DNA from: an archaeon
GTDB taxonomy: Archaea; Iainarchaeota; Iainarchaeia; Iainarchaeales; 1-14-0-10-31-34
NCBI GenBank assembly: GCA_024277355.1
Contig: JAJRVL010000001.1
Location: 90,001 to 122,000 of the forward strand
Direction of reading: 5' to 3'
Length of the DNA: 32,000 nt
In this document: positions 1,974-30,100 of the stretch, piece after piece
Layout: each line of letters begins with the position of its first letter
Position numbering within the stretch: position 1 is the stretch's first letter
The notes under the pieces: generated by a model
Databases searched by the model: none
Told to the model about the DNA's origin: nothing
The model's input: only the letters and a program-made list of their open reading frames with translations
Translations under genes and position numbers: made by a program

Positions 1974-2462
1974 ATGAACAAAAACGATGCAGTAAAAGGA
2001 GGAAAATTTTTACTTGAATTAGTTTTAGCTTATGTAATTATTTCCTTATTTTTTTTATTTATTCCATTAGAATTAATTGAATTAATTATAGCAAAAACTG
2101 TTATGATTTTCACAGGCGGAAAAATTGTTTTTCAGGAACCAGTTTTAATTTTATTTGAAAATTTTTCAGTTCAAATAAGTTATTTATGCACAGGCTTAAT
2201 GGAATTTATTTTATTGGCTTCAGCAATAATTGCAACAGCAGGAATCAAAAAAGAAAAAAAAGTTTTGGGAATTGTTGGAGCAGGAATTGCAACTTTTGTT
2301 TTTAATGTAATTAGAATTGTGATAACAATTTCTTTAATTGAAAACACTTCAATAGAAATAATTGAATTAACTCATGATGTTTTATTCAGAATTTCATTAT
2401 TTGTTTTAATTGCAGGATATTATTTTATCTGGTATTACTTTTCAGTGAAAAGACAAAATTAA
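1974..2462 (+). CDS. Exosortase/archaeosortase-family protein, short (162 aa) form
   Basis: Polytopic membrane protein with about 4-5 hydrophobic helices. It carries the family signature residues in the usual order: Cys in VQISYLCTGLMEFILL (C72), Arg in TFVFNVIRIVITI (R114, 42 residues after the Cys), and His/Arg in ELTHDVLFRISLFVLIAG (H134, R139). This matches the C[ST]G ... N..R[IV] ... H pattern of EpsH/exosortase/ArtA proteins as I remember it. Confidence 0.7.
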   Translation: MNKNDAVKGGKFLLELVLAYVIISLFFLFIPLELIELIIAKTVMIFTGGKIVFQEPVLILFENFSVQISYLCTGLMEFILLASAIIATAGIKKEKKVLGIVGAGIATFVFNVIRIVITISLIENTSIEIIELTHDVLFRISLFVLIAGYYFIWYYFSVKRQN

Positions 2463-2553
2463 TAAACAAACAAAAACATAATTAGAATGAAATGACACCA
2501 AAAAGAAAAATATCTAAACCTGTAAAAATAAAAAAATTCTTGTCAGGAGGAAC
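2453..2553 (+). repeat. Copy 2 of the 101-bp perfect direct repeat; it overlaps the last 10 nt of the sortase-like gene
   Basis: Identical to 550-650 by manual alignment. Confidence 0.9.
2459..2466 (+). promoter_or_regulatory. TATA-like box (TTAATAAA) about 26-33 nt upstream of the ATG at 2492
   Basis: Same sequence and spacing as 556-563, as part of the perfect repeat. Confidence 0.25.
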
Positions 2554-3442
2554 TCCTGTTCAACAAATAATAAAACAAACAGGATTATCAGAAAGCAGAA
2601 TAAGTCAAATAAAAACAAAATTACAAAAACAAGGAATTCAAATACCCAAATATTCAAAAACTAACTGGAAAGATTCAAAAGGAAACATATACAAACAAGT
2701 TCGAGCAAGAAAAGCTTTGATTACTAATCCAACAAAACAAACAATCAAAGAATACACAAAACAACTAAACTTTAACACATCAACAATTCAAAATGCAATT
2801 AAGCAAATCAAAAAAGAAAACAGAGAATTAATAAGAAAAGGAATAATGCCTTTAGAAATACAAGTAAAATCAGGATATTTAAAACCTATTCCTAAATTAA
2901 CTAAAAAACAACAAGCAGTATTACAACAAGCACAACCTTTTGTTAGACAAGCAGTTAATAGGCTTTCATTTAAACACAAATTCAATACAGAAACAAAACA
3001 AGATTTTCAGGCTGAAGTTCAAAGACAATTACCAAACATAATAAAAAAATTTAAACCAGAAAAATCACAATTAAACTCTTGGATAACCCAAAAAATATAC
3101 CGAATAAACCAAGAATTTAACATAACAAGAGAAAAACAAAAAACAGGACTATCCACAATTGAAACAAAAATCGGAAAAAAACTAGAAACATTTATACAAA
3201 AACAAACAAACATTCTAGAACAACAACAAAAAAGGAAAATAACTTACCAACAAACACAAAAAATACTACTACAAGCAATCAAAGAATTAAACAACACAAA
3301 ACACTATGCAAAAAGAATGAAAAAAAACTACAAAAAAAGATTCCCTAAAAGAAAACTTACACTAAAAGAAGCAACAGAAATACTAAACGCAAGAAACACA
3401 AGAAACACACAACAAAACACAGAAGACAGAAGGGGCTTGTGA
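2492..3442 (+). CDS. Lys/Gln/Thr-rich putative DNA-binding protein with a single double-HTH module and a sigma-70 region-2-like C-terminal domain (paralog of 589-1944)
   Basis: 316-aa ATG ORF ending in TGA. The first 20 residues are identical to ORF 589. HTH-like segment: GGTPVQQIIKQTGLSESRISQIKTKLQKQG. C-terminal segment: QPFVRQAVNRLSFKHKFNTETKQDFQAEVQRQLPNIIKKFKPEKSQLNSWITQKIYRINQEFNITREKQKTGLSTIETKIGKKLETF, which looks like sigma regions 2 to 3.0. Confidence 0.75.
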   Translation: MTPKRKISKPVKIKKFLSGGTPVQQIIKQTGLSESRISQIKTKLQKQGIQIPKYSKTNWKDSKGNIYKQVRARKALITNPTKQTIKEYTKQLNFNTSTIQNAIKQIKKENRELIRKGIMPLEIQVKSGYLKPIPKLTKKQQAVLQQAQPFVRQAVNRLSFKHKFNTETKQDFQAEVQRQLPNIIKKFKPEKSQLNSWITQKIYRINQEFNITREKQKTGLSTIETKIGKKLETFIQKQTNILEQQQKRKITYQQTQKILLQAIKELNNTKHYAKRMKKNYKKRFPKRKLTLKEATEILNARNTRNTQQNTEDRRGL

Positions 3443-3535: not shown

Positions 3536-6500
3536 ATGATTTCAGAAAAACTTGGAGGAATTTATTCTGCATTAGAAAACAAGTTTTTTGGTTTCTTTGA
3601 TTTTTTAGAAGAAAAAGGAATTCCTGTTTATTCAGTTATTGAACCAATAGAAGATAAAGGAATTCCATTTTTTCCTTTAACTATTGCATTAATTGTTTTA
3701 CTGCTTGTAAGTGCTTTTGGTTTTGCTTCTGCTGGCCCTTTTGAAGCAAAAATTGAATTAAACTTAAAAGATTCTTACGGTAATCCTTTAACTCAAGTTA
3801 AAGTTTTAGTTAAAGATAAAACAGGACAAAATTTGTTTTCTGAAACAAAAAATCATGGAGATATGATTTCAATTAATGCTTCAGCAGGAACAGAATTATT
3901 TTTTACAGCAGAAAAACAAGGATATGAAAAAAACACTGCAAAAATAAAAGTAATAAATGAAAGCTCTGAAATTGAATTAACTTTAAAGAAATTAATTAAT
4001 ACTATTAAAGGAAAAATAAAATTTTATGACAAAGAAACAGACACTGCTGTTTCAGGCGTTGTAGTTTTAATTGACTGGAAAGAAAGAAAAGAAGAAAAAA
4101 CAGCAGACACTTCTGGTTTAGTTGAATTTTTAGATATTCCATTAGAAGAAGATATTTTAATTACAGCAAAAAGTGATTCATATTATGAGTATTCAGGAAT
4201 AATTAATTTTGAATCAGAAGAAACAAAATCAGTTTATTTAACTCCAAAAGAAATTGCTTTTGCAGGCGAAAGCAATCTAATAATAACTTTATTTGAAAAA
4301 GAAACAGGCAAATTATTAGAGAATGCAAAAATAAAAGTTTATTCAGACAATGAATTAATAGATGAAAAAATTGTTTCAGACGGAGTTTACTCAGAAAATT
4401 TCCCTAAAGGAATTGTAGTAAGATTTACTGCAGAAAAAGACGGATTTAAGTTATTTGAATCAGACGAATTTACTTTAAGAAGTGAAGAAGAAAATGCAGG
4501 AAGTATTGAATTAGAAACAGGCGGAAAAGAAGTAATAATTAAAGTTGTTTATTCAGATACAAAAAATCCAAGTGTTGGAGCAGAAGTAACTTTATTTAAT
4601 TCACAAAATGAAATCATTAATTCTTTTTTTACTTTATATGAAGGGCAAACAGAATTCAAAGGTTTAGGAGAAGAAGAATACTTTATTGGAGCAGTAAAAG
4701 AAGGTTATCTGCCTGCAATAAAAAGAATTGAAAATGGAACTGAAACACTTGAATTAATAAAAGAAAATGAAAATAATTCAAAACCATTAACTGTATTAAC
4801 AATAAATGAAAACGAAAAAGTAATTGAAAATGCTTCCTTGTTTTTTACTCAGATAATTGAAGGGATCGAAATTCCTTTAGGGTTAGGAATAAGAAAAACT
4901 GATGCTGCAGGAAAATTAAATTTAAATGTTCCGTTAAACGCAGAAATATATGTTAAAGCAGTGAAAGATTTACTGACAGGAAAAGAAAAAATTTTAATTG
5001 GAGAATACAATAATAATTTATTAATTAAAATGGAAAAAAAAGATTCAGTTAAAAGCATTAAATTTTTTGATGAAAAAGGACAAATTGTTCAGGGAAATTT
5101 AGTAATTAAAACAAAAGAAGGAGAAGTATTATTTGACGATGAAATAACTGAAGAAGAAATATTATTTGATGCAGGAAACAAAAATTTTGTTGAAATAGAA
5201 TTGACAACAACAAACAAAACTTATTCAGAAGAAATTAATTTAGAAGGAAAAAAAGACATTAAATTAAATTTTGATTCAACTGTTTACAGCAAAAATGCTC
5301 CTGAAATAGAATTTTTAGGAGTATATGATATTTCAGGAAATGAAATTGAAGGAATAACAAAAGGAAAAGAATATATTTTAAAATTTAAAACTGACTGGAG
5401 TAAAAAAACAGAAAAAGGCGGACTTCATTTTCGAACAGGAAATGATTCAATTAAATATGCAGATTCAGAAGATATTGGAATAACAGGATTTGATGCACCT
5501 GCAGTAAATTATTTTTATGGAAGAACTTATTCAATGACTCCTTCTCCAGGAAACAAAGAAATAGATTATTCAAATAAAGGACAAGGCGGAAAACTCAATA
5601 AATTTGTTGAAATTTATTTTAATAAACCTGAAGGAACAAAAATAATCAAAATAAGAATTAAAGCAAGTGAATTAATTTCAGCTGAAAAAATTAAAGTTAA
5701 ATTCAGAGGATGGACTGAAACAAAAAGCGGGTTTTCAAGAACTCCAATAGATGAAATTATAGGGACAACAAAAGATTCAGGTGAAAGACAGGGATTATAT
5801 GCTGAAACAAAAGAAATTGAATTAAAAGTTTATGATTCAGAACCGGAATGTATTGAAGAAGTCTGTGCTGAATATAATATAATTGATGAAACAGGAAAAG
5901 TTTATGACAAAAAAGACTTTTTTGCTTTAAAAAATAAAGTTTATGCATTAGAATTAAATTTAGAGGCAAGAAAAACAATTCAAGCAAACTTTAAATTAAA
6001 TACTTCAAATGAAAATCCAAGAATTGCTTTTACAGGAAAACAAGTTAATTCATTCAGCCAGTTTATTGACAACGATAACAGCGATACTTTAACTGAATTC
6101 ACTGAAACTGTTTCAAGAAAAGGAACAAAAATAAGAGTTTATTTTAAAGCAAAAGAAAAAGGAGAAAGTTTTATTGATTCACGGATTACTACTTTGAAAG
6201 ATTCAATGCAGGAAAATTTTTATTTTAAAATATTTGAAGAAAAAGAAATGCAGTTAACAATTCCTGAAACAGCAAACCAAGGAAAAGACTTTGAAATAAG
6301 AATTTTAGAAGAAGGAACCGGAATTGAAAATGCAGAAATAAGTTTTTATAATTCACAAGGAAGACTTGAAACAGTAATTATAGGAAATGAATTTAACGGA
6401 AAAAACGGAAGATATAAAATAAAAAATAATTTTAAAGCAGGAAATTATTTAGTTAAAATTACTGCAGACAAATTTAAGACAGAAGAAAAACAAATTTCAG

Positions 6501-9500
6501 TTATTTACGGAAAAGGATTAGAGTTAGAAGAAGAAGTTAAATTAAATATTCCTGCAAATGAATTGTTTGCATCAAAAAGAACAAAAATAAATAATTCTTC
6601 AGGAGAAAGAATTGAAAATTTAAGTTATGAATTAAATGGAAATTTACCAAAAGAATTCAAGTTAAGTGTAAATCTTCCTTTAACATTAAATTCAGGGGAA
6701 GAAACTGAAATAGAATTAATTGCAGAATATTCAGGAAACTCAAATGCAGTTGTTTTTGGAGAAACAGAAATAATAATTACAGGAACAATAAATGAAATTC
6801 CAATAAAAGCTATAACAAAAGCAAAAATTAATTATAATCAAAAGTTAGATGAAAAATGTTTGGAATTTGACAGAAGTGAATTAAAAGAATACTTAATTGG
6901 AGCAGGAGGAAACTCAAAACAAATTGAATTAGGATTAAAAAATAACTGTAATGTTCCATTAGAATTTGAATTAGAATTTAAATCAAAAGGAAATAAAGAT
7001 AACGAAATAGAATTTAATGCAGGAAAAATAAGAATAGAAAAAGACGAAATAAAAAACATTAAAATAGGAGTAATAAACAAAATTCAAAGAAATTATGTCA
7101 ACCAAATAGAATTAGATTATGATATTTATTTTAAGTCAAGCCAGTTAACAAAAACAATTCCAGCTAAAATAATTTTATGGCATGAAAGATATTCTTTAAG
7201 TGTCAGTCCTTCAATTGTTTTATGGTTAACTCAAAGCAAAAAAGGAGAAAAAGCAGTTTCAAGAACTCCAATTTTTATCAGGAATACAGGTTTTACTGAT
7301 ATACAAAATTTAAGTTTTTCATTTCAGTTTACTAAACCAGGAAACACTGAACTAAAAATTTTATGGGGAAACACTCCTCAAAAAAACATTGAAGTATTAG
7401 GAAAAGGAATGGGATTAATTCCTCCAATGATAGTTGAAGCACAAACAAACACAAAAGAAAACCAGATAATAATTGGAAAAATAATTGTAAACGGAGTAAT
7501 TGAAGGCAAACAATATATGTTAAGAGAAATAAACACTTTTATCAATGTAAGTTCAGGATGGAGCTGCTTAGAAGCGTGGTCAGATGACATGCAGTTTTAT
7601 TCAGATAATGCTGAATTTGGAGGTATAGACAAAATACTAAATATAACAAACAATTGTGTTGAACCAGTAATAATTAAAGGACTTGAACCAGAAAAAATCG
7701 GAGGAAATGAAATTAATTTAATTGACAGAGATTACATGCTAAGCCCTGGAGCAAGTGATGGATTTATTGTAAGATTAACAAAACAAGCTGAAGCAAACCA
7801 AAAAACAAAACTAAAAGTAATTGGAATAGGACAAAATTCAAGAAAAACAATTAATTCAATGCCGTTTGAAATAGAAATTGCAATAGGAAAAGGTTCAGGT
7901 TTATGCGGAGACGGAGAAGAACCATGCAAAGCAGAAAATGAAACAACAGTAGAATACTGTGATGAAAGCGGATATGCAACAATGTATTTTCCAAAACAAT
8001 CAAGTAATTGTTCAGAAGGCTACTGCGATGCAGAAGAATTAGGAAAATTTTTAGCAGAAAAATTTCAGGAAGAAATAAGAAAAGCACAATTAAGAATTGC
8101 AGAATTAAAAAGCGTTGAAAATTTAGGAAGCAAATGCGACTACTATAATAATTACTGTTCTTTCGGAGCAATGGGAATTACAACTTCTTCATTTGAATTT
8201 TATTTCAAAAACGACAATTTAAGTCAAGACATGCTAAAAAATGAAATCAAGAAATTGGAAGTTAAGGAATTACAGAATTATTTTATCAGACCTGGAGAAA
8301 CAGAAAATGAATTATATTCTTCAGCAGGAAATTCTTTTGGAGAACACCTATTATTAGTTCCTTCAATCAGAGGATGCGGAAGATATCAAGCAAGAATTTT
8401 AGGCGCAACAGCAACACATGGAAATGAATTCAAAGACAATTCAATTAGTTTGCTTTTAAAAATAGAACCAAGAGAAGAAACGCCGGAATGCTATAACAGA
8501 ATACAAAACTTTATGAATTTCCTTCCATTAAATGAAAGTTATTCCCCAGCAAACAATAAAGGAAGCTGGTTAGGAATAATAATAAAAGATGAAGACCCAG
8601 AAATAGAAGAATTACAACGAAATTTTTCCAGGACTTTATTTAAAGATGAAAAAGGAATAAGAATTACAACAGTAAAACAAAATAATTTCATTACATTAAG
8701 AGAAGGAAACTTTGATTCAACAAAAGGAATAGTAAAAATTGCAATAGAAAGAAAAGGAAAAAGCAATACCCCAAAAGAAATTGACATCTACATAACTGAT
8801 GATTTTTTTAATGCACCAGAAGAAGTAAGAAACGACATTGCTTCTGAAGCAGGAGCAATTATTTCATCATTAAAAAACGGAAGAATAGAAAAAGGATGCA
8901 TTTCAAAAGAATTAGATTACTTGATTTTAGGTTCAGTTACAGACATTACTGAAATTGCCAATATTCAATGGAAAGATAAAACAAAATTAATCAATTTATA
9001 TCCTGATGCATATAGTTGTGCTGACTTAAAACTGCAAAGCAAGATTGAAAGTCCGGAAACAGTTTTAAGTTGGAATTTAGTTAATGAAGAATTACAAGGA
9101 ATACAAAAAACAGAAACAGTTTTGAAATATAAAGATGGAAGAGAAATAACAAACAAAGGAGAAGAAATAATTCCTTTAAACAGAGTTGAATGGACTGAAG
9201 AAGGAAACCTTTATTCTTTTAATTCTGAATTATGCTTTAAAGGTTCAGATAACCCAAGACAAGCAATGGGTTCAAAAATTAAATTAAACGTTGAAGGACT
9301 AAAAGAAAGAACCTTACAGTTTGGAGTTTGTGCTATTACTCCAATTGAATTTATTGAAAGAAGCAGAACAAAAACAAAAATTGGAAAATGGTTTGCTACA
9401 GTTGACTGGAAAAATAAACCAGAAGAATTACCTTTTACTTCAGCTCAAGCACAATATTATTTAGATAACCCAGAACAAAGCCCTGCATTTAAAAGAGATA

Positions 9501-10750
9501 AAGAATTAGGGAAAAATAAGACAATAGGATTAATTGGTTATGGAGTTGGAGCATTAGGGGGTTGTATAGGAGCAGGAGCATTAACCGGAGGATTTGGATG
9601 GCTTGACTGTATTTTAAATGCAGGAATTCCAACAGCAATTGGTGCTTTTTCTGACAGAGGATCAGTTTATGATACAGCAAAAACTGGTTATCAAAACGCA
9701 TTAGCTTCAGTCGGAGTAGGTAAAGTAGAATTAAATCAAATAAGAGAAGAAACTTCTGATTTAACTGACCCTCAGTTTTTCGGAGAACTTGAATTAATGA
9801 CTGCAATGACCAGAGGAGCACAAGAAACAGTTAAATTAGTTCTTCCAGTAAAAGAAGAAGCAAAAGTTGCAGCCCAAGCTGCAAAAGATTTAGCTTCAAG
9901 TGGCTCAAAAGAATTACTTGATGAACTTACATCAATAAATACAGATGTAAAAAGTTTTAATAACGCAAGAAAATTATTAAGCCAGTCTGAAATAACTGAA
10001 ATAGGAACTTTTCCTCCAGGCACAAAAGTAAGAGTAACAGCTATAAGAACAGCTGATGTTGGCGGACTAAAATTTATTAGAACTACAAGTGCTACCAACC
10101 CTTTACTAGTGGAGGGAACAACCACATTCCCTGGATTCCAAGATAAATATGATGATTTAATTAAATCCTTTAAAACAGCTAAAATTGGAAATAGGACAAT
10201 CCCAGGAATAGATAGTTTAATTGATGAATCATTTAAGACCACTGGAAAAAAACCAGTGTCTGTTTTGAATGACTTAGCTTCAGACCCTGATAGAGGATTA
10301 CTAAAAAGAATTGATGATTGGGGAGCAAAAGTTGATCAAGTAGCAGTTGATACTCCTGAAGGAAAAATATTGAAAGCAGTAAAAGAAACATTTGTTGAAA
10401 ACGCAGGAGACGACATAAGTTATGGCGGAAAACCAATAAGGCAAACAGGAATAACAAAACTTAAAGGTACAACTAAAATTCCAAGCATTTTATCTGATGC
10501 AAAAGCTTTTTCAACTAAAGGAAAAATTTTATCTTTCCTTGAAAGAAATCCAAGACTAAAAGCATTAGGAAAAGGAATAGTTATTTCTGGAGGCGGAGCA
10601 ATGTTAGGAGGAATGGCTGGCTGGATGTTAGCTAATGCTTTCTTAGGAGACTTTGAAGAAATCCCAGAAGCTCAAGCAGACGTTTCAGCAATAACTTTTA
10701 GAAAAGGATTTACTTATGAAGTTAAAGTAGGAAAAAACCAGACAGGATAA
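3536..10750 (+). CDS. Giant membrane-anchored surface protein, paralog 1 (GP1, 2404 aa)
   Basis: Uninterrupted 7.2-kb ORF. GAAAGG lies 8 nt upstream of the ATG. It has the conserved N-terminal motif plus a TM helix (IYSALENKFFGFFDFLEEKGIPVY...DKGIPFFPLTIALIVLLLVSAFGF), then beta-sandwich repeats, a GGLHFRTG module, Ig-like modules carrying L.NNC / I.NNC strands, a Cys-rich YCDESG...YCDAEE region and two Gly-rich hydrophobic segments near the C-terminus. Confidence 0.95.
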   Translation: MISEKLGGIYSALENKFFGFFDFLEEKGIPVYSVIEPIEDKGIPFFPLTIALIVLLLVSAFGFASAGPFEAKIELNLKDSYGNPLTQVKVLVKDKTGQNLFSETKNHGDMISINASAGTELFFTAEKQGYEKNTAKIKVINESSEIELTLKKLINTIKGKIKFYDKETDTAVSGVVVLIDWKERKEEKTADTSGLVEFLDIPLEEDILITAKSDSYYEYSGIINFESEETKSVYLTPKEIAFAGESNLIITLFEKETGKLLENAKIKVYSDNELIDEKIVSDGVYSENFPKGIVVRFTAEKDGFKLFESDEFTLRSEEENAGSIELETGGKEVIIKVVYSDTKNPSVGAEVTLFNSQNEIINSFFTLYEGQTEFKGLGEEEYFIGAVKEGYLPAIKRIENGTETLELIKENENNSKPLTVLTINENEKVIENASLFFTQIIEGIEIPLGLGIRKTDAAGKLNLNVPLNAEIYVKAVKDLLTGKEKILIGEYNNNLLIKMEKKDSVKSIKFFDEKGQIVQGNLVIKTKEGEVLFDDEITEEEILFDAGNKNFVEIELTTTNKTYSEEINLEGKKDIKLNFDSTVYSKNAPEIEFLGVYDISGNEIEGITKGKEYILKFKTDWSKKTEKGGLHFRTGNDSIKYADSEDIGITGFDAPAVNYFYGRTYSMTPSPGNKEIDYSNKGQGGKLNKFVEIYFNKPEGTKIIKIRIKASELISAEKIKVKFRGWTETKSGFSRTPIDEIIGTTKDSGERQGLYAETKEIELKVYDSEPECIEEVCAEYNIIDETGKVYDKKDFFALKNKVYALELNLEARKTIQANFKLNTSNENPRIAFTGKQVNSFSQFIDNDNSDTLTEFTETVSRKGTKIRVYFKAKEKGESFIDSRITTLKDSMQENFYFKIFEEKEMQLTIPETANQGKDFEIRILEEGTGIENAEISFYNSQGRLETVIIGNEFNGKNGRYKIKNNFKAGNYLVKITADKFKTEEKQISVIYGKGLELEEEVKLNIPANELFASKRTKINNSSGERIENLSYELNGNLPKEFKLSVNLPLTLNSGEETEIELIAEYSGNSNAVVFGETEIIITGTINEIPIKAITKAKINYNQKLDEKCLEFDRSELKEYLIGAGGNSKQIELGLKNNCNVPLEFELEFKSKGNKDNEIEFNAGKIRIEKDEIKNIKIGVINKIQRNYVNQIELDYDIYFKSSQLTKTIPAKIILWHERYSLSVSPSIVLWLTQSKKGEKAVSRTPIFIRNTGFTDIQNLSFSFQFTKPGNTELKILWGNTPQKNIEVLGKGMGLIPPMIVEAQTNTKENQIIIGKIIVNGVIEGKQYMLREINTFINVSSGWSCLEAWSDDMQFYSDNAEFGGIDKILNITNNCVEPVIIKGLEPEKIGGNEINLIDRDYMLSPGASDGFIVRLTKQAEANQKTKLKVIGIGQNSRKTINSMPFEIEIAIGKGSGLCGDGEEPCKAENETTVEYCDESGYATMYFPKQSSNCSEGYCDAEELGKFLAEKFQEEIRKAQLRIAELKSVENLGSKCDYYNNYCSFGAMGITTSSFEFYFKNDNLSQDMLKNEIKKLEVKELQNYFIRPGETENELYSSAGNSFGEHLLLVPSIRGCGRYQARILGATATHGNEFKDNSISLLLKIEPREETPECYNRIQNFMNFLPLNESYSPANNKGSWLGIIIKDEDPEIEELQRNFSRTLFKDEKGIRITTVKQNNFITLREGNFDSTKGIVKIAIERKGKSNTPKEIDIYITDDFFNAPEEVRNDIASEAGAIISSLKNGRIEKGCISKELDYLILGSVTDITEIANIQWKDKTKLINLYPDAYSCADLKLQSKIESPETVLSWNLVNEELQGIQKTETVLKYKDGREITNKGEEIIPLNRVEWTEEGNLYSFNSELCFKGSDNPRQAMGSKIKLNVEGLKERTLQFGVCAITPIEFIERSRTKTKIGKWFATVDWKNKPEELPFTSAQAQYYLDNPEQSPAFKRDKELGKNKTIGLIGYGVGALGGCIGAGALTGGFGWLDCILNAGIPTAIGAFSDRGSVYDTAKTGYQNALASVGVGKVELNQIREETSDLTDPQFFGELELMTAMTRGAQETVKLVLPVKEEAKVAAQAAKDLASSGSKELLDELTSINTDVKSFNNARKLLSQSEITEIGTFPPGTKVRVTAIRTADVGGLKFIRTTSATNPLLVEGTTTFPGFQDKYDDLIKSFKTAKIGNRTIPGIDSLIDESFKTTGKKPVSVLNDLASDPDRGLLKRIDDWGAKVDQVAVDTPEGKILKAVKETFVENAGDDISYGGKPIRQTGITKLKGTTKIPSILSDAKAFSTKGKILSFLERNPRLKALGKGIVISGGGAMLGGMAGWMLANAFLGDFEEIPEAQADVSAITFRKGFTYEVKVGKNQTG
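3740..5280 (+). other. Array of about 5-6 beta-sandwich repeats of roughly 90 aa in GP1 (carboxypeptidase-regulatory-like / PEGA-like pattern); approximate boundaries
   Basis: The recurrent pattern is 'I.L.V.D..G.PL..A.V.L' ... 'G.Y...A.K.GY/F'. Examples: LFFTAEKQGYEKNTAKIKV, VVRFTAEKDGFKLFESDEF, YFIGAVKEGYLPAIKRI. Confidence 0.5.
9524..9649 (+). other. Glycine-zipper-like hydrophobic segment inside GP1 (42 aa)
   Basis: IGLIGYGVGALGGCIGAGALTGGFGWLDCILNAGIPTAIGAF, with small-xxx-small spacing of Gly/Ala and no charged residue except one Asp. Confidence 0.55.
10574..10648 (+). other. Second Gly-rich hydrophobic segment near the GP1 C-terminus
   Basis: GIVISGGGAMLGGMAGWMLANAFLG. Confidence 0.5.
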
Positions 10751-10960: not shown

Positions 10961-12664
10961 ATGAATAAAAAAGGTTTTACTTTATTTACTGCTTTGGTTT
11001 CTTTTGTTTTAATTTTATTAAGTGCAATGTTAGTCCAGACAATGATTAAAGCTGAAAGAGACAGAACAGAAGTAATATCAAACATTGAAGAACAAGCAGA
11101 AATGCAGGCAATGGCAGACTTAACAAGAGCTGAAGCATTACAGACATTTAATTATACTATAAGAAAAAGAATGGAAGAATACTTCAGTAACCCAACAAAC
11201 ACAATTGAAATTTACCCGCAAGAAAATAATTTTCAGGAAATACAAGAAAAGTTTGCTGAAAGATTTTTTGGAGCAGGCGGAACAGGAGACCAGTTTATCA
11301 ACGATATGGCAGTAACAATAACAGAATCAATGCCTTCAACTAAATTTATTGGCCCATATGAAATTTCAGTTAAATTTAAAGGAACAGGAGTAACAGAACA
11401 AAAAGAAATTTTATTTGCTTCATTAAAAGAATTATTTAAAAAAAGCGTTGAAGCAGGAGAATTTTTTGAGGTTGTTAACTGTGAAAACGGAAACCCCCAA
11501 GACTGTTTAGGAACATTTTACCTTAATTTAGACACATCAGATTTAAGTGAAGAAACCTATGAATCTTTTCCGCAAATTAAAGTACATAATCCAAGAACTC
11601 AAAGAATTTTACAGGAATCAATTTTTCCTAAAGGAAAAATCAAAATATATGTCCCAATCAGATTATTTAAAGCAATAGCTGAAGCAAGAAGCCTTGCATT
11701 AGAATATGAAAAAGAAACAGGAAATTCATGGAAAACAAATTATGGATTATTTTCTCCAAGAATTCATAATGAAATAGAAGAAATGAAATTAGGAATATGC
11801 GATCCTTCTTACTGCAGTTTAAGAACTAATCCTTATGTTCCTCCTGAAAACAAAAACATGCAAATTCCCTGCCCTAATACAACTGGATTCCCAGTAGCTG
11901 AAATAAATTATCCTTCAGTTAAATGCACTACTGATTTATTAGAAAGAGGATTATGTTTTGATTCTTCAGGAAATCCAGTAGCAGTGGGAAGAAAAATTTT
12001 AAGTTATAGTCCAAATACAGCACCAAATACAACTGAAGAAAACCTATTTGATCCAAATAATCAGGGAAAAAAAATATCTGAATTAGCAGGAAAAAGATTA
12101 TGCAAATTAATTCAGGAAAATATTGCTACAGGAGATTACTTGGATTTTGATTCTGCTGATGATTTTATTTTAGGACAAGATGACAGTTATGCTTTTGTAT
12201 GCAATCTTTCAGACAGAAAAAAAGTTTCAATGTCAATTATTTCAACTACAAGAAATTCAGTTAAAGTGGATTTACAGGGAGCAGGTTCAGCAAGTCTTGA
12301 TCCAGGTTTTAATAGAAGATATAATGCAAACAATAATTATGGAGGAACAGCTTCTTGCCCGCAGAATTCTGCATCTAATTCATTATTGTGGGGAACTTAT
12401 GGAATAGGAATTAATGCAGATAATAAAATAATTCAAAAAACAAAAGATTCAGCTAGCTGTTTAGGTTTTCCTTTAGGAATAACTCCAAATTATGCAACTT
12501 GTTCTGAAGTAAGCAAAATAGCAATAAGAATTCCATTCAAAGAAACAAACAAAAATTATATTATTGACAAAACAAACAAACCAGTTTATGTAATTGAATT
12601 AATTGACGATAAGTTTACTCCTGATTCTTACACTGATGCATTTCATCAGACAACAAGATTTTAA
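10961..12664 (+). CDS. Large (567 aa) Cys-rich secreted protein with a type IV pilin-like (class III) N-terminal signal
   Basis: The N-terminus MNKKG|FTLFTALVSFVLILLSAMLVQTMI has basic residues, then Gly, then about 24 hydrophobic residues. This is the prepilin-peptidase substrate pattern, but there is no Glu at +5. The mature part has many Cys pairs (VVNCENGNPQDC, GICDPSYC, IPCPNTT...VKCTT...GLCF). TGGGG lies 8 nt upstream of the ATG. Confidence 0.8.
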   Translation: MNKKGFTLFTALVSFVLILLSAMLVQTMIKAERDRTEVISNIEEQAEMQAMADLTRAEALQTFNYTIRKRMEEYFSNPTNTIEIYPQENNFQEIQEKFAERFFGAGGTGDQFINDMAVTITESMPSTKFIGPYEISVKFKGTGVTEQKEILFASLKELFKKSVEAGEFFEVVNCENGNPQDCLGTFYLNLDTSDLSEETYESFPQIKVHNPRTQRILQESIFPKGKIKIYVPIRLFKAIAEARSLALEYEKETGNSWKTNYGLFSPRIHNEIEEMKLGICDPSYCSLRTNPYVPPENKNMQIPCPNTTGFPVAEINYPSVKCTTDLLERGLCFDSSGNPVAVGRKILSYSPNTAPNTTEENLFDPNNQGKKISELAGKRLCKLIQENIATGDYLDFDSADDFILGQDDSYAFVCNLSDRKKVSMSIISTTRNSVKVDLQGAGSASLDPGFNRRYNANNNYGGTASCPQNSASNSLLWGTYGIGINADNKIIQKTKDSASCLGFPLGITPNYATCSEVSKIAIRIPFKETNKNYIIDKTNKPVYVIELIDDKFTPDSYTDAFHQTTRF

Positions 12665-13118: not shown

Positions 13119-16100
13119 ATGGGTTTGAAAGAAGTTTATTCTGCAATAGAAACCAAATATTATAATTTCATGGATGCGATAGACGAAAAAGGAATTCCAG
13201 TGTATAAAGCAATTGATTTTGTTGAATCAAAAAGCATTCCTTCTTTTCCTTTAGCAGTTATTTTTTTTGTATTAATTTTATCAGGATTAATTTTAACTTT
13301 AAATGGCGGAAGCTTACTGCAGAATACAACTGAATTTGAATTAATGATAACAGATGGAACAACAGCAATACAAGGAACAACAATAAGTTATTTTTTAGGA
13401 GAAAAACAAATTACAGTTACAACTAATAATCAAGGAAAAGCAGTAATTGAAGTAACTCAAGGAAAAGAATTTTCAGTTACAGCAGAAAAAAATGGATTTA
13501 AAAAAATAACTAAAACTTTTGATGCAAAAGATGAAAAAGCAACACTTGTTTTAATTGCAGATATATTAAAGCCAATTAAAATCCAGTTATTAGGAAAAGG
13601 AAACGAATTATTAGAAGAAGAAATAAAAGTTTCTTTTACTTGTTCTGAAAATGACAAATGGAATGAAATAGTTTTATTTAACACAGGAACAACAAATTTA
13701 GCTGATGTTCCGGCAAACTGCGGAAAAATTTTAGCTGAACCAATAGGGAAAAAATGTTCAGACTGTGACTTTGATGCATATGATTCATTAATTAAAATTT
13801 ATTTAGAAGAAACCACAACAGAAAAAGGAACAATTAATTTTACTGTATTAGATGACAAAGGAAATTATGCTGAAGCAATACAAGTAATGGTTATTCCCAC
13901 AGGAAATTTAAAAGAAGAAGATTCATGCTATACTTTTAATGGTTTATGTGAAACAGAAGTCCCATTTGGAACTTATTATATTAGAGCAACGGATTCAACA
14001 GGAAAATTAAGAGATTATGATTCAAGAAAAGATACAATAACTATTACATTAAATTCAAATAACCAAAACATTGATTTTGAAGAAATAATTTTAGGACAAG
14101 GAGTAATTGGACAAATAAAAATTAAAATTAAAAGTGAAACAGGAAATTTAATTGAAGATGCATTAGTCAGATTATTTAAAGATAATTCTGAAATAAACCA
14201 GCAAAGAAGCAATACAGAAGGAGAAATAATATTTAATGTTGCAGAACAAATTGATTACACTGTTTCAGTTACTCATGCAAATTATTTGAATTCAGATGTA
14301 AAAACGGTTTCTCCAAAAAATGATTTTTATTCATTTTCATTAAAAGAAGCAACTTCTTCTAATAAAAGAAAAATTGAAGTAAACGTAGTAGACGAAAAAA
14401 ATGAAGCAGTAGAAAACACTAAAGTTTTCTTAAAAGATGCATTAACCGGAAGCATTGTAGGACAAGAAAAAGTAACTGGATTAGACGGAAAAGCTTCATT
14501 TGAAAGACTTCCAACAGGAAAATATATTTTAAGAGCAGAAAAAAGAGGCTTTGAAGGAAAAGATTCAAGAGTAATTGAAGTAAAAGAAAATGAATTAAAT
14601 GAAGTAACAATAAAATTAGATTTAGGACAGGGAAACCTTGACGTAATAGTTATAGATAAAGAAAAACAGCCAATTCAGTCAGCAACAATTAAAGTAATAG
14701 ATTATTTTACAGGAAAAGAAATTTTTGTTGATTCAACTGACACTGAAGGAAAAAAAAGCTTTAATATCAGAGCAGACAAAAAAGTTTATTTAGAAGTAAA
14801 TGAAAGTTCTCACTCTAATTATATTAGTGCACCGATTCAGATGTTTAATGGAACAGAAGAAAAAACAATTTTATTAGAAGATTCAATTAATTCTTTTGCA
14901 ATTAAATTAGAAGAATTAAGTTTAGAAGGACAGGAAGTAGAAAACATTACTGTTTCAGAAGGAAGAACTTATAAAGCTAAATTCAAATTAATGATTCCAA
15001 CAAATGTTTTTTCAAATAATGCAGGAGTTCATATCAGGACTGGCGCAGACACAAAAAACCAGAATAATACAATGGAAAAAGATGATTTATACATCAAAAA
15101 AGTTATTGCTTCAAATGCAAAAATAATTAAAGGAACAGCATTTAATCCAAATACAGGTTATGCAATTGACTCAAAGCATTTAACTTCAGGAAATGCAAAA
15201 TGGACAAACATAATATTTAATTCAGTTAAAGAAGGAACCTATGAAGTTGAAATAGTAATTCAGGTAAGAGAAACCTTAAACGGCAGTCCAATGGAATTAG
15301 CTTATAGAGCTTGGATTGAAAACAATGGATATCAAAGAGATCCATATGATTCAGAATTACAGGAAGCAGAAAGTTCAGCATTAAAACAAGCATTATATGC
15401 AAAAACAAGACATGAACCATTAAAGATTGGGGCATCAAGTTTATGTGCAGAAAATTTTTGTTCAAGCTTTACAATAAAAGATTTGCAGAATGCAGTAAGA
15501 ACAAATATAATTGATTCTTTTCCAGCAGAAATTTCAAGTAATTATGAATTAGAATTTAATATAATCAGCACAAGCGAAAAAACTTATTCTAATAGCGAAC
15601 TAATAATTAAAGGAAAAGGAATTGAATTAAATTCATATGAAATTCAAGGCACACAAAAAAATGCTGAAGGAGAAATCATAGTTAAAACAGGATTAATAGA
15701 AAAAGGACAAAAAATTTCAGGGACAATAAATTTCACAACAAAAAAAGAAGGAACAAACAGAATTGACTTAAGTTTGTTTGGAGAAAGTTCAACTTTAGGA
15801 AAAGAAAAAATATTATTTAAGCCTATAAGAGCTGAAGTAAAACATGCAAAAACAATGATTGTTTCAAATTCTCCTCAGAATTTAGTTCCATTTATTAAAA
15901 ATAATTTATTAGTAAGAATAACAGATGAAGAAGAAAATGAATTAAGTGAAGTAGAAATAAAAATAGAAAAGGACTTTGAATTAATTGCTTCAGGAAAAAC
16001 TGATTCAAAAGGAATTTTTGCTTTTGGGTTTGAAGCAATGAACCCAGGAACAAAAATAATTATTACTGCAGAAAAATACGGTTTTAATTCAGTTGAAAAA

Positions 16101-25500: not shown

Positions 25501-27024
25501 GTAAATGCTTTGCCTAAAATCAAATTAGACTGGAAATGGAATTCAATAACACAAAATTCATGCGATGAAAGTAATGAAAATTACATTTACTGTGATGCAA
25601 CACAATTTTCAATTGAATTACTCAAAAAAATAAAAGAATTAACTGAAAGACTTGAAGCAGATGCATTAACTTGTGAAACAAACTGCGTTTATTCAACAAT
25701 TGAATTGCCTGCATTAATTGAAAACACAGAAAAAACAAGATCTGTTTCAGACAAAGAAAGATTACTTGAATTAGTTTCATTTAATTCTTATTTAATTAAA
25801 GACGGTTATTCAAAAGACTTCCAGGAAGACTTCCATGATTATGCAGTTAATATTGATTTCTTTAATGCTCCAACTTCTTATTACAATCCAATAGAAGAAA
25901 TAGGCCTTGGAGTTTACTTTAAAGACAATTCATTATTTGAATTCAATTACGAAGGCAGTCCTAACGCACCATTATCAGGACCAGGATTATACAACATTGA
26001 AATAGATATTACCTATAATGATTCTTCATGGAAATTATTCAATGGAAATACTCCTAATGCAAAAATAAAAATTAATTTAAGCAAACAAAGAGCAGCAAAA
26101 CCAAACTCTCCATTATATTACCTGCCATTTAACGGAGAAATTGGACTTACATCAGATAATGGAAGAATAGGTTATGGATTAGATTACGAAAATTTAACAG
26201 GAAAACCAATAAGAATAAATGACACTACAAGAAGTATTAGAACAGTTCCTCTTTCAGTTGCTGATCCAGTAGAAGAATTAAGAACAATATATGAAACAGA
26301 CTTCAAAAAATTAAATTTAGATGAAAGAGCAAAAATAATGCAGTTTGAAAGAACTTCAACCGGAACAAAATTAACTTATACTCCTTCAACTGCAACTCCA
26401 GTAATACTTGAAACAACAAGAAGTTCTGAAACACCAAAAGAAACAGCTTATGCATTTTATTTAATTACAGTTGACGGTCAGGCACAAAATGTTGGAAGCA
26501 CAGGAATAACTAATTGGTCAGGAATAGAAGCAAACTGCAAAGACTTTGAAGACAGAAGTTCATTAGATTACATGGAAACAGCAGACATGCATGGAATAAG
26601 CAGTGAAGCAAGCAATGCACAGATTACTGCAGATAAAGCAACAGCTTATGGATGGATATGGAATAATCCAATTAGAACTGGAAAATTCTGGTTAGAAACA
26701 TTAATTTTTAGTCCACTTGAATCAAAAACACAAATGCATTTAATTTCAGCAGCAAACAATGCAAAAATTTATACTCCATTAGATTCAGCAGTATTAACAG
26801 AGAATTCAAACTTAACTCCTTTTGTTGAATTAAATGGAGTAACAAGCTTGGAAATAACTTCCCTACAAAAAATACTTGATTTAGTTGAAACAAAAGATGT
26901 TTGTGTTGGAGGAATAGGAAATTCAAGTTATAGTTATTTCTTCTGGAATCCAGAAAAAGTTGATGACTCAATTAATTCAGTTAAAAACAAGTTAAACGCA
27001 GAAGAAAACTGTATTCTGAAATAA
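22579..27024 (+). CDS. Giant surface protein paralog 3 (GP3), C-terminal fragment. Homologous coding sequence actually resumes at 22546, immediately after the TAA.
   Basis: The TTG 'start' at 22579 in the ORF track is internal to the conserved module. The 11 codons 22546-22578 (GDAKWFNSVWF) align with GP2 (GNAKWTNIIFN) and GP4. There is no SD-like motif, no N-terminal motif and no TM at this 'start'. Downstream are the CSNEFC pair, Ig-like modules (ISIGIGGEVDDPNC..., IENAC...), a hydrophobic region, the KIKLDWKWNS...IYCDATQF module and the C-terminal domain shared with GP2. Confidence 0.8.
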   Translation: MPEKGVHNIEILIKVKENARLGQELKLKYRAYADTGSRTERNPTDVSVTSSEELNAAVKEKTFTVGANIFCSNEFCFSATILDLKEDIIKKVSNSYQTKILQKYELQFDILNNNKTKKHYDAKIQLKNENEMLNFLDYRISNADALTKSGTADKKELPWVELGDFDPNNHITGKTEFITQETKTGTIDIVIVSNQEIVFEKNIQIEVQAPKNFLVEFTPEKIPSTTSSLIEFTVFDEETGIEIENAQIKVIDRFGDLIAGPELTDREGKTEIIISGQAPDTKLIFRTEKQEYNISELEVFTDNSIIEITPDRIGITLNTKTQKSNEFSFKIKNILEFDLELTSLKFTGNFRDLLNKKAMNAWMNTNYGNIIIPSKTTKEVKVKGILSDYALNREERDIVELDLELELSNGEAFWTKEIPAKISIGIGGEVDDPNCLTLEQRTWKTGTEGSKVKIDFGIENACTINGNPIELKDLEAKVNWNSNHIGTYTLTFEGNPVELRSAYYRKLTEEMENRKYTATLSFEPNGGVNGTANAEIILRARNQLDGKDEFIEDKISTEIKIINLKDCIKFSNTDLKVKKGEITSFNVSTLGCGSNVSFTFDSELKLNSKSLTLGSEDSTEIKIDSRDALSGRYLIKAEAKGNSLATKTQIQNIFVTVFEDSCVALSRYEFDIYDSTENDFDGYDTAQLYNYCDEKELLIKVNMKDWSLAMRNSLLPSLIAFGTATISDKSSDKADTTDNSNGEKVWAAEKESIPTTAFIGLPFIGEISQILSGGNLLKSVFGSASPFEIFGITFVASTLYNYFSADEIGFNAIADNITVDDIVLLEGIKYTTEKIEVLDEEIGLVIDGPFSCFDSVSNKTIDCWDLTFVNENKLVQEDEFTPIMKILKTKSAEHFWKTDYDGDYFNENKGFLEKMFNGADLDLKKPLQEKTNKQNEILQYNKLQFNSFNPEDTTLGKQNAFGSCSIGELTGETGVNALPKIKLDWKWNSITQNSCDESNENYIYCDATQFSIELLKKIKELTERLEADALTCETNCVYSTIELPALIENTEKTRSVSDKERLLELVSFNSYLIKDGYSKDFQEDFHDYAVNIDFFNAPTSYYNPIEEIGLGVYFKDNSLFEFNYEGSPNAPLSGPGLYNIEIDITYNDSSWKLFNGNTPNAKIKINLSKQRAAKPNSPLYYLPFNGEIGLTSDNGRIGYGLDYENLTGKPIRINDTTRSIRTVPLSVADPVEELRTIYETDFKKLNLDERAKIMQFERTSTGTKLTYTPSTATPVILETTRSSETPKETAYAFYLITVDGQAQNVGSTGITNWSGIEANCKDFEDRSSLDYMETADMHGISSEASNAQITADKATAYGWIWNNPIRTGKFWLETLIFSPLESKTQMHLISAANNAKIYTPLDSAVLTENSNLTPFVELNGVTSLEITSLQKILDLVETKDVCVGGIGNSSYSYFFWNPEKVDDSINSVKNKLNAEENCILK
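24835..24987 (+). other. Degenerate hydrophobic/Gly-rich region inside GP3
   Basis: IPTTAFIGLPFIGEISQILSGGNLLKSVFGSASPFEIFGITFVASTLYNYF. It is preceded at about 24711-24750 by NSLLPSLIAFGTA, which aligns with RSLLEFGGLASG of GP4. Confidence 0.4.
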
Positions 27025-27107: not shown

Positions 27108-30100
27108 TTGGGATTAAAAGACATTTATTATTCAATAGAAGACAAATATTATTCTTTAATTGAAAAAACTCCTTTAACAAAAATAACTGATAAAATTGAT
27201 TCTATTGTTCCTTCTTTTGCAGTATTAATTGCATTAATTATTTTAATTTCAGGTTTTTTAGTTTTGCCTTTTTTTGGCGGAGAAGAATATTCTTTTACTG
27301 TAACAATCAAAGATGAACAGGGAAAAAAACTTGAAGGAATAAAAGTAAATGTTTTTATCGGAGAAGAAAAACAAGTTTTAACAACAGATTCTGAAGGAAA
27401 AATTTCATTAAAAGCAAAAAAAGATTTAAAAATAAAAATAGAAATAGACAACAAAAAATATGAATTTATAGAAAAACAATTTAATTTAACTGAAAATGAA
27501 TTAAGTTTTGAAGTTGAATTAAAGAAAATTGAGGCAGAACCCGCAGAAGCTAATTTGAAGTTTACAGACAAAAGCGGAAAATATATTACAGGAAAAGAAA
27601 TAACAGTAAACTTAAGCTGCAGTAATTCTTCTATTAAACCTTCTCCTTCAACAGTAAAAGATTCAGATAAAGACGGGGAAATAAAAATTAATATTCCTAA
27701 AGGATGCGGAAAATTAGTTATTAATTCAGTTGAAGTTGAAGGATATGAAAACTGGTTTGGAACAATTAATTCAGCAGTAGAAACAATAAAATTAAATGCA
27801 ATATTTTTAGGACAGGCATTAGGAGATTTAAAAGTAATCGTGGAAAATTCAAACGGAGAATTATTAGATGACATTAAAGTAAGTTTAATGAAAGGGAACT
27901 CAAAAATAGATCAAAAGTATACAGTTGACGGAACCGCAGAATTTACCGGAATTGAAATTGGATTTTATGACTTAAAATTAGAAGACGAAAAAAATGGGTT
28001 TGAACCAAAAAGAGTTTATTCAGTTGAAATAGAAAACGAAAAAATAAATGAAAGAACAGTTGAAATGCAGCCAACAAAAAAAGGCACACTAAAAATAAAT
28101 ATATTAGATAAAGAAACTAATTCAAAAATAAAAAATTCTGAAGTAATAATAGAAAATGAATTAGGAGAAATAATAGGGGAAAGAAACACAGGAGAAACAG
28201 GAAATACAATTGAATTTGGATTATATTCCACTGAAAAACTAATTATTAAAGCAAGAGCAGAAAAATATTTGCCTGAAAAAACTGAAATTAACCCTGAAAC
28301 CCAAAAAGAAGTTGAAATTAAATTAGAAAAAATTACTGCAGAAAACAGCGGTAAATTAAAAATAATTTTAGTTGATGAAGACAAAAAAAACATTGCTAAT
28401 GCAAGAGTAATGCTAAAAGATGAAGACGGCAGTCTGCTTACTGAGTATCCTGAAAAGTTTTCTGATGCAGAAGGAATAGTTGAATACACAGGAATAAAAA
28501 AAGGAATTTATTTTGCTTATGCAGAAAAATATCCTGCTTCTGGACTTTCAGACTCATTTGAAATAAAATTAACAGAAAAAACTGAAATTGAATTAAAATT
28601 AATCATAGGAACAGCAAAAATTGAACTGCAAACAATAACAAAAGACGGAGAATTCATTCCAAATACAAGAGTTAAAGTAAAAAGCATTGATGAAGAAAAA
28701 ACTTATACTTTAAATTCAGAAGGAAAAACTACTTTAGAAATAAAAGCAGATAAAAGAGTTTTTTTTGAATTCTTTGATTCAAAAAATGTTTATTCAAAAT
28801 ACACTACAAAAGAATATCAGTTACTTCCAAAGAATTATTTTATTACTGCAACAATGCCTGAACAAAATTTAGGAGAAAATTTATGGATTGAATTAAAAGG
28901 CGTTTATTTAAATGACACAAAACAAACTATTCTGGCAGGAGGAAAAAAATACAAAGCAGTATTAGAATTATTTGTTCCAGAAAACGAATCATATGAAGAA
29001 GCAGGAATTCATTTCAGGACAGGAGAAGATGAAAACCCATTTATAGAAAATGATTTAGTTTGGATAGAAAAAATTAATGTTTCAAACGCTTCAAAAATAA
29101 AAGGAACAACATGGAACCCGAAAAAAGGGCAGCAAACTGATTTTGATTCAGATAATTCAGCTTCAAGCAATGCAAAAGCAAAATGGACAAATATTTTATG
29201 GAACAATGTTGAACCAGGAGTATATGAAGCAGAAATAGAACTAAGAATACGAGAAGGAACAGGAGATAAAGAAAAAGTAAGTTTAAGTTTTAGGGCATGG
29301 GGAAAAGGAAGAAACTATTATTACTTTCCGGCAGACAATGAATTAGGTTCAAGTTCTTCCACTACAACAAAACAAGGATTATATGCTGAAACATTCCAGA
29401 AAGAATTTAACACAGAAGAAGAAGTTCCTGTTTGCATGGAAAACAATTTATGTTTGTCAAAACAAAGATTAGAAGATAAAACAAAAGAACCATTTATCAT
29501 ACAAAAAAAACTTCCGTTTGAAGCAGGAGCAAACGGAAACTATGAATATAGTTTTAAAATAGTGAATAATTCTCAGTCAATTTATGATGAACCTGAATTA
29601 TGGATTGAATTAATTGATGCAACAGGAAATTTAACTGAAGAAGCAGAAATAAGTTATTATGAAATTAAAACTTCAGAAGGAAATTCAAAAACAAAAGAAG
29701 TTAATTCAAATGAAACACAAGGAATTTCTTTAGGTTTATATGGAAGGCAGTCAGTAATTGAAGGAATTATTGGAATAAAAACAAAAAATACAGGAAATAC
29801 TTTTGTTAACTTAAAAATATTTGAAAAAGTAAACAATGGGTCAAATAAAATTTTTGACAATGAAAAGAAAACAGAAATAAAAATTAAATCAGGAAAAGCA
29901 TTAGAAATAGAATTAATGCCTGAATTAATTCCTGCTTTTGCTGAAACTCCTGCAACAATAATAATAAAAGATTTAGATGGAATTGAAGTAGAACAAGCAA
30001 GAGTAAAATTAAATGTAATAGAAGAAGGAAACAGAAAAATAACTATTGAAGAAAAACAAACAAACAGGTTTGGTGAAACAGAATTTTTAATCCCAGTATT

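Follow-up and report, generated by a model that had tools for sequence, protein, structure and literature searches.

Results

Four giant genes with a common N-terminal leader

The window analysed here is a stretch of 32,000 nucleotides (positions 90,001 to 122,000 of contig JAJRVL010000001.1, assembly GCA_024277355.1) from a small DPANN archaeon of the phylum Iainarchaeota. It has a GC content of approximately 28% and contains four very long open reading frames (ORFs) on the same strand, designated GP1 to GP4. The subject of this study is the N-terminal peptide of the encoded giant proteins, termed the leader, which precedes a predicted transmembrane (TM) helix. Translation from positions 3536, 13119, 20467, and 27108 reproduced exactly the four N-termini listed in an earlier note on this DNA, including the TTG start of GP4. 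In each giant, one strong hydrophobic helix directly followed the conserved motif, at residues 43–61 in both GP1 and GP2 and at residues 37–55 in both GP3 and GP4. The genes and their N-terminal features are as follows:

3536–10750, plus strand: GP1, 2404 amino acids (aa), delineated by paralog comparison and domain scan
3536–3667, plus strand: GP1 leader (residues 1–44), long type, with K-G just ahead of the IP motif
3668–3742, plus strand: predicted signal-anchor helix of GP1 (translation, hydropathy)
13119–20450, plus strand: GP2, 2443 aa, with leader, TM helix, and an ectodomain of tandem beta-sandwiches (CarboxypepD_reg, 2e-24)
13119–13241, plus strand: GP2 leader (residues 1–41), comprising predicted helix 1 (3–23), helix 2 (28–36), and the I-P of the IPSFP boundary motif (AlphaFold2 pLDDT 83–88; conservation profile)
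13242–13301, plus strand: predicted signal-anchor (TM) helix of GP2, residues 42–61 (AlphaFold2 helix 42–61; hydropathy peak 43–61)
20467–27024, plus strand: GP3, a single gene of ~2185 codons with an in-frame TAA at 22543–22545
20467–20571, plus strand: GP3 leader (residues 1–35), short type, lacking residues between helix 1 and the TM helix, a deletion that was unseen in the other families examined
20572–20637, plus strand: predicted signal-anchor helix of GP3 (translation, hydropathy)
27108–32000 and past the window end, plus strand: GP4, 2368 aa in the genome, with a TTG start
27108–27212, plus strand: GP4 leader (residues 1–35), short type, from the TTG start
27213–27278, plus strand: predicted signal-anchor helix of GP4 (translation, hydropathy)

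The GP3 N-terminus had been assigned correctly, but the ORF at 20467–22545 (692 aa), previously taken as the gene, is only its first part. The same gene continues, in the same frame and after a single TAA, in the ORF at 22579–27024 (1481 aa), and the joined halves are colinear with GP2 and GP4. The ortholog is intact in three congeneric genomes, which carry Q, Q, or E opposite the TAA, and both flanks are well conserved. The stop codon is therefore better explained by a nonsense mutation of very recent date, by a variant within the population, or by an error in the assembly than by an old pseudogene.

The giants are paralogous along their length, with 23–33% identity over 700–1,300 residues plus further common C-terminal blocks. 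The large ectodomains had been described as divergent. They are indeed less conserved than the leader, but the description overstated the case in that they are slowly diverging orthologs and paralogs and not unrelated cargo. Thus, the leader is the best-conserved part of a homologous family rather than a tag on unrelated proteins.

The leader is a conserved protein domain

The consensus over 156 representatives reads M-G-L-K-D-F-Y-Y-S-L-E-D-K-Y-Y / x-F-L-D-x-L-D-E-K-G-I-P-V-Y-K / V-V-D-P-I-E-x-K-G-I-P-S-F-P and is followed by the hydrophobic helix. Eight positions are each kept in at least 92% of the representatives, namely Y7 (154/156), E11 (155/156), D19 (151/156), P27 (144/156), Y29 (145/156), D33 (148/156), E or D at position 36 (156/156), and P41 (155/156). 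Between positional orthologs from different families, the leader was 40–66% identical, whereas the 300-residue bins of the ectodomains of the same orthologs showed 0–39% identity, with means of 18–30%. Together with the near-invariant residues, these values bear out the earlier suggestion that selection acts on the peptide ahead of the TM helix. For 21 of the 101 leader-bearing representatives of at least 300 aa, the ectodomain had no BLAST match to the giants of this genome. The motif is preserved between genomes with 28% GC and clusters with 52–58% GC, and the constraint therefore acts on the protein. An RNA or promoter element at the nucleotide level was excluded on the same grounds.

An AlphaFold2 model of GP2 residues 1–140 (14-sequence alignment, mean pLDDT 84) predicted two helices at residues 3–23 and 28–36 and a membrane helix at residues 42–61, followed by a beta-sandwich. 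Helix 1 is amphipathic with a high hydrophobic moment, and its hydrophobic residues follow a clean 3–4 spacing (L3, Y7, L10, Y14, F17, L21). The leader is acidic, with a median net charge of –3 and on average 7.8 D/E and 5.1 K/R residues (144 representatives), and it is aromatic-rich, with ~6 aromatic residues, particularly Tyr. The uncharged run behind it has a median length of 26 residues. Some members, including the fifth giant described below, carry 20–120 extra hydrophilic residues ahead of the leader.

Searches of Pfam and NCBIfam with the full giants and with the leaders alone yielded no family for the leader. With 14 leaders as queries, Pfam returned only sporadic matches far below the family cut-offs; none involved more than two leaders, and the best had E = 0.0015 (ApoO). 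The best hit of a profile search of the PDB with the leader had E = 1.5. A Foldseek search with the GP2 1–140 model gave transthyretin-like and Ig-like matches that were confined to the beta-sandwich, with none on the leader. We conclude that the leader is a genuine protein domain under strong selection, with no counterpart in the domain databases searched.

Distribution of the leader

A profile built from the alignment of the four N-termini in the window was run against the complete set of 2,943 ORFs in the 1.13-Mb genome and recovered the four giants (E values from 1e-25 to 2e-33) and a fifth one, GP5, on contig 9 (2e-14). No further ORF of the genome carried the leader; the next best of the 2,943 had E = 0.13, and given this gap the matches lie far beyond chance. 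GP5 is encoded outside the main cluster (contig C9, 1684–7788, minus strand; locus L061) and has a short-type leader preceded by a Lys/Glu-rich extension. Since there is no ATG, GTG, or TTG close to the motif, this extension comprises at least 43 aa. Two secreted proteins of ~500 aa are encoded downstream of GP5 on the same strand.

Among close and order-level relatives, the profile matched 59 of 61 genomes from 32 families. Throughout the phylum Iainarchaeota/Diapherotrites, the leader was matched in 206 of 215 genomes, among them all 58 of high quality, with one to nine (mostly three to seven) matches per positive genome. Nearly all leader-bearing frames in these genomes that were not cut by a contig end or a stop codon encode 2,000–3,400 aa, and they often stand in tandem. 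A contig labelled 'Candidatus Micrarchaeia' led to a second phylum, in which the leader was detected in 10 of the 121 genomes sampled. These ten all come from a single order, and within that order the leader was present in each of the 41 genomes sampled; it was found in none of the 111 sampled genomes of the second phylum outside this order.

A search of 1.84 billion protein cluster representatives gave 1,144 matches at E ≤ 1e-3, of which 788 reached E ≤ 1e-10. Among the best 150 of the 1,144 matches, the leader was located at or near the N-terminus, and the complete proteins mostly had 1,200–3,400 aa; the short leader-bearing matches were most likely cut off by contig ends. The source names of the homologs include 'Candidatus Diapherotrites' and 'Candidatus Iainarchaeum', and the complete genome GW2011_AR10 (AR10) is among them. 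The motif thus occurs far beyond the four paralogs, both in genomes and in metagenomes, and is not the product of a simple recent duplication, which the earlier note had considered as a possible outcome of such a search. Nor was the motif found on unrelated cytosolic proteins lacking a TM segment: a TM helix always followed it.

Two subtypes follow gene position

The N-termini had been divided into an EKGIPVY-containing subtype (GP1 and GP2) and a KTPLTKITD-containing subtype (GP3 and GP4). This division is real, and in a comparison of five Iainarchaeota clusters (this genome and four other families) it generalised to a long and a short type, whose distribution across families follows gene position and ectodomain orthogroup. 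Giants at the GP1 and GP2 positions have the long leader, with G25 and E-x-K-[GN] ahead of IPSFP, and those at the GP3, GP4, and GP5 positions have the short leader, characterised by I-D-P-I-D-[KR]-I-V-P-S-F. Among representatives of at least 1,200 aa, the long leader was combined with a GP1/GP2-like ectodomain in 33 of 34 cases and the short leader with a GP3/GP4-like ectodomain in 29 of 30. The two subtypes are thus old as well as position-specific. The K-T-P-L-T-K-I-T-D form is a short-type leader that has lost additional residues between helix 1 and the TM helix; none of the four other Iainarchaeota families examined showed it.

The second phylum also contains giants with a mini-leader, in which helix 1 and E-E-K-G-[IV]-P lead directly into the TM helix without helix 2 (L069, 6545–13660, genome G215; G271, contig C1, 301716–310838, minus strand). 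The leader profile did not detect them at E ≤ 1e-3. As mini-leaders keep helix 1 but not helix 2, the Y7–D19 stretch of helix 1 looks like the core of the leader.

The giants belong to a type IV pilus-like supercluster

The giants GP1–GP4 are positional orthologs, and their order is conserved within a type IV pilus-like supercluster. The cluster starts with pilins, a PilC-like platform protein (721 aa, T2SSF), a T2SSE ATPase (760 aa), and a mini archaeosortase. These are followed by GP1, a large pilin-like protein (490–600 aa), GP2-GP3-GP4, three small membrane proteins, and a conserved 499-aa protein. Small membrane proteins of 109, 110, 102, and 123 aa come after GP4. AR10 and two further genomes of the phylum retain the full order, and a fourth also has the giant array. 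In three genomes of the second phylum, the order is retained in large part. Within the window, the neighbouring members are:

1–489, minus strand: T2SSE-family (FlaI/GspE-like) ATPase, first 163 of 760 aa, part of a lineage-specific extra N-terminal domain (N-domain); candidate cytoplasmic partner of the leader
1974–2462, plus strand: exosortase/archaeosortase-family protein, 162 aa (TIGR04178, 2e-9), a conserved cluster member
10961–12664, plus strand: pilin-like protein, 567 aa, with a ComGF-type N-terminus, located between GP1 and GP2 in five of five Iainarchaeota clusters

The extra N-domain of the ATPase (window 1–489, minus strand; L156, 1291–2490, minus strand) is 50–60% identical across most of the order. 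An AlphaFold2 model of ATPase residues 1–400 (pLDDT 72) was searched with Foldseek. Residues ~200–400 correspond to the N-terminal-domain fold of archaeal GspE, FlaI, and CpaF, and the first ~190 residues had no PDB counterpart in this search. In the model, the ~190-residue N-domain has a region of beta-hairpins that contains Cys26 and Cys29 and then four long helices, the first of which carries Cys41; the cysteines show a CxxC...C spacing.

The first 163 residues of the ATPase were detected in exactly the same 10 of 121 second-phylum genomes as the leader. In Iainarchaeota, the N-domain was present in 185 of 215 genomes and in 57 of the 58 high-quality genomes. Scanning metagenomes with the N-domain identified 80 loci. 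Of these, 36 have at least 5 kb of upstream sequence, and in 23 of the 36 a divergent leader-bearing giant starts within 10 kb. Gene order and co-occurrence show that the cluster block travels together, and they make the type IV pilus-like machine the best candidate for the dedicated machine whose existence the earlier note had suggested for the leader.

Several further genes were observed in and around the cluster. The conserved 499-aa protein near the cluster end (L060, 4666–6165, plus strand; genome contig C10, 126666–128165) had no Pfam match. It occurs in nine of the ten leader-positive second-phylum genomes, and none of the other 111 sampled genomes has it. A further type IV filament set, which is smaller and consists of a 475-aa T2SSE ATPase and two T2SSF/TadC-like membrane proteins, is located ~17 kb upstream of the main ATPase (L059, 447–3585, plus strand; C10, 70447–73585). 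The mini archaeosortase is flanked by two paralogous sigma-like/helix-turn-helix (HTH) genes (589–1944 and 2492–3442) that represent a local insertion, and their homologs outside this genome lie in no giant cluster examined. TFB is encoded in the genome and sigma-70 region 2 was not found, which identifies the organism as an archaeon.

The giants were also considered as archaeosortase substrates. A tripartite C-terminal signal consists of a motif, a TM segment, and a basic tail, and the last 150 residues of GP2 and GP3 contain no hydrophobic helix with a basic tail. In GP1, a Gly-rich hydrophobic stretch ~45 residues before the C-terminus is all that was seen. Since the conserved motif and TM helix are N-terminal, and thus at the wrong protein end and on the wrong membrane side, this possibility was rejected.

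Between the ATPase/sortase genes and GP1, other Iainarchaeota encode hydrolase-type proteins. The AR10 genome (G023) has a large secreted peptidoglycan hydrolase with an Amidase_3 domain (8e-34) as well as PKD and Glucosaminidase domains (L042, 10708–13758). In genome G022, an 821-aa protein with a sub-threshold Glucosaminidase match (1e-5) occupies this place (L052, 2315–4780). Because the cluster of these relatives carries peptidoglycan hydrolases, there are hints that the apparatus is aimed at bacterial cells.

Discussion

A proposed docking handle in the cytoplasm

We propose that the leader forms a cytoplasmic domain at the N-terminus of giant (~2,000–3,400 aa), membrane-anchored surface proteins, which make up an ancient family with type II, N-in topology. 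The leader of ~41 residues (41–45) would be joined through the I-P-S-F-P boundary to an uncleaved signal-anchor helix. It would stay in the cytoplasm as a common docking handle, by which every giant paralog could bind one conserved partner encoded in the cluster. The likeliest candidate is the pilus-type motor, which might be contacted through the lineage-specific ~190-residue N-domain of the ATPase or through the platform protein; this choice of partner is a guess. Binding might serve the assembly, positioning, or anchoring of the giants. For a retained handle that docks to a conserved cluster component, with the motor as the leading candidate, we estimate a probability of roughly 0.5.

Because the leader is acidic and the uncharged run has TM length, a retained domain with a signal anchor is favoured over a cleaved signal. 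The traits of a cleavable Sec signal are lacking in that the n-region is not positive and the hydrophobic segment does not look like a short h-region (~7–15 residues) with a peptidase site; the predicted helix spans 20 residues in the AlphaFold2 model. The additional hydrophilic residues ahead of the leader in some members would likewise fit a cytoplasmic domain, not the n-region of a signal peptide.

Several observations weigh against this proposal. We infer both topology and non-cleavage from composition. The charge balance across the TM helix is nearly neutral (–0.5 before, –0.9 after), so that the positive-inside rule is of no help, and the N-in orientation rests mainly on the extracellular-type beta-sandwich domains behind the helix. 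A purely structural role of the tail in membrane insertion or anchor stability would explain the conservation as well. The co-occurrence of leader and ATPase is a clade-level pattern, reflecting two clades and block inheritance, and does not single out the ATPase over other cluster proteins. As all second-phylum positives belong to one order, we downgraded co-occurrence as evidence for a partner. Finally, two complete second-phylum genomes encode the ATPase ~280–290 kb away from the giants.

A more specific version would be that the leader is the grip by which the type IV filament motor holds the four giants from inside, via the ~190-residue N-domain of the ATPase. This suggestion is tentative, and we consider it probably incorrect in this form. 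If true, a new ATP-driven apparatus that assembles, extends, or retracts fibres of 2,000–3,400 residues for contact with other cells would exist in Iainarchaeota and in a single order of a second DPANN phylum. Enzymes that cleave bacterial cell walls are also encoded in this cluster in some lineages.

Alternative explanations

The leader could instead be a dedicated export-targeting extension, that is, an unusually long signal n-region that selects a special route or chaperone, paces the translocation of very long chains, and is then removed. Such extensions exist: the ESPR and the accessory Sec (aSec) signals are conserved N-terminal extensions specific to giant secreted proteins. The leader likewise occurs on very large exported proteins, directly ahead of a hydrophobic segment, and small residues often follow the hydrophobic helix (G63, G64), although they are only partly conserved among the 156 representatives. 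However, its net charge is acidic rather than basic, the uncharged segment has the length of a TM anchor, and the hydrophilic residues that precede the leader in some members do not suit an n-region. Searches with HMMs of the ESPR, YSIRK, and KxYKxGKxW type gave no Pfam or NCBIfam signal-motif match, whether the full proteins or the leaders alone were used, and the cluster proteins examined include no dedicated SecA2/SecY2-like components. We regard an export extension as unlikely. A second alternative would be an oligomerisation module, in which the heptad-patterned helices 1 of four or five paralogs bundle in the cytoplasm together with the TM helices to hold one heteromeric surface structure, with no other partner. 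The regular hydrophobic spacing of helix 1 and its high moment agree with such bundling, as does the presence of several paralogs in fixed order per genome with two complementary leader types. Yet the invariant residues include acidic ones on the solvent face (E11, D19, D33, E36), which suggests an external ligand, and some incomplete genomes contain only one or two copies; we therefore find a self-contained bundle rather doubtful.

Two further explanations take up the gene neighbourhood. The leader might be a long prepilin-type (class III) leader that an A24 prepilin peptidase cuts ahead of the hydrophobic helix, which would make the giants giant minor pilins in a filament. The architecture of archaeal pilins, an N-terminal hydrophobic helix and then a beta-sandwich, is matched, the giants are co-encoded with pilins, the platform protein, and the ATPase (T2SSE and T2SSF genes adjacent), and the genome has two A24 peptidase genes (PF01478). 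In GP1 orthologs, [KR]-G stands directly ahead of the IP motif. This site is confined to GP1-position orthologs, however; short-type leaders lack a [KR][GA] site, and the –1 residue is G in only 54 of the 156 representatives, with N in 38, V in 33, and I in 20. The class III leaders known to us are, moreover, far shorter and far less conserved. Because of the unconserved –1 residue, we rejected prepilin processing as a general explanation, and overall we give this reading little chance. The sigma-like genes that adjoin GP1 in this genome raised the question of a class II (CnrY-like) anti-sigma domain that sequesters these DNA-binding proteins. The predicted architecture of a ~45-aa two-helix cytosolic N-terminus (AlphaFold2), a TM helix, and an extracytoplasmic domain would match. 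But a sigma-like protein was found in 4 of 41 relatives, as opposed to the leader in 59 of 61, and in the conserved clusters of four other genomes it is absent, with other genes in its place. This distribution refutes an anti-sigma role as the general function, and the idea has next to no probability.

Significance

Little is known about how DPANN archaea attach to other cells and exploit them, and no cultured model exists for Iainarchaeota. The leader offers a concrete experimental entry point: it is very highly conserved, absent from domain databases, and tied to a pilus-type motor by gene order and co-occurrence. It is small enough to be synthesised, used as bait, and mutated, and its distribution defines the apparatus. 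If the leader docks to the motor, a type IV filament machine would be coupled to giant proteins that are not pilins, of which, to our knowledge, no case has been described. Should it be only a tail for membrane insertion, it would still be a useful new family marker for annotating giants.

Comparison with known systems

Apparently the same kind of array has been reported from the same phylum, in Candidatus Forterrea (Diapherotrites), as five membrane-anchored proteins of >1,800 aa in a 42-kb region (Probst & Banfield, 2018; PMC5905446). A term search of this text found no description of a shared N-terminal domain, of subtypes, or of a pilus-type link. In a review of archaeal type IV pili (PMC4858521), large accessory proteins are mentioned in other lineages only. 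Five consecutive genes for giant surface proteins, amounting to several percent of a small genome, are also present in Apilactobacillus kunkeei (Giant1–5; PMC12863079). Those proteins, however, have ordinary Sec/SPI signal peptides and alpha-helical repeat rods, and they are unrelated in sequence and lineage.

The ESPR of autotransporters and two-partner secretion (TPS) exoproteins and the KxYKxGKxW accessory-Sec signal of serine-rich adhesins resemble the leader as conserved N-terminal extensions limited to very large exported proteins. They differ in being basic parts of cleavable Sec signals and in being bacterial, whereas the leader is acidic, with two predicted helices and a hydrophobic segment of TM length. 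With FlaF/FlaG and archaeal pilins, the giants share the plan of a helix followed by a beta-sandwich and a type IV filament locus. In contrast to these proteins, the giants add a conserved, putatively cytoplasmic domain of 41–45 aa, and most lack a class III cleavage site. The whole-model Foldseek matches to archaellin and an archaeal pilus were weak (ranks 22 and 35) and not significant.

The closest functional parallel may be found among the bitopic platform proteins of type II secretion systems (T2SS) and type IV pili (T4P). These have conserved cytoplasmic N-termini: GspL docks to the N1 domain of GspE, and the N-terminal peptide of PilN docks to PilM. In their predicted layout, the giants are alike, with an N-in orientation, a single TM helix, a short conserved cytoplasmic N-terminus, and a co-encoded T2SSE-family ATPase with an extra N-terminal domain. 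The giants are unrelated to these proteins in sequence and fold, their ectodomain comprises 2,000–3,400 aa, and docking is proposed for them by analogy. In kind, the leader would thus resemble the modules of conserved cytoplasmic tail and signal anchor in envelope proteins that are linked to type IV filament systems.

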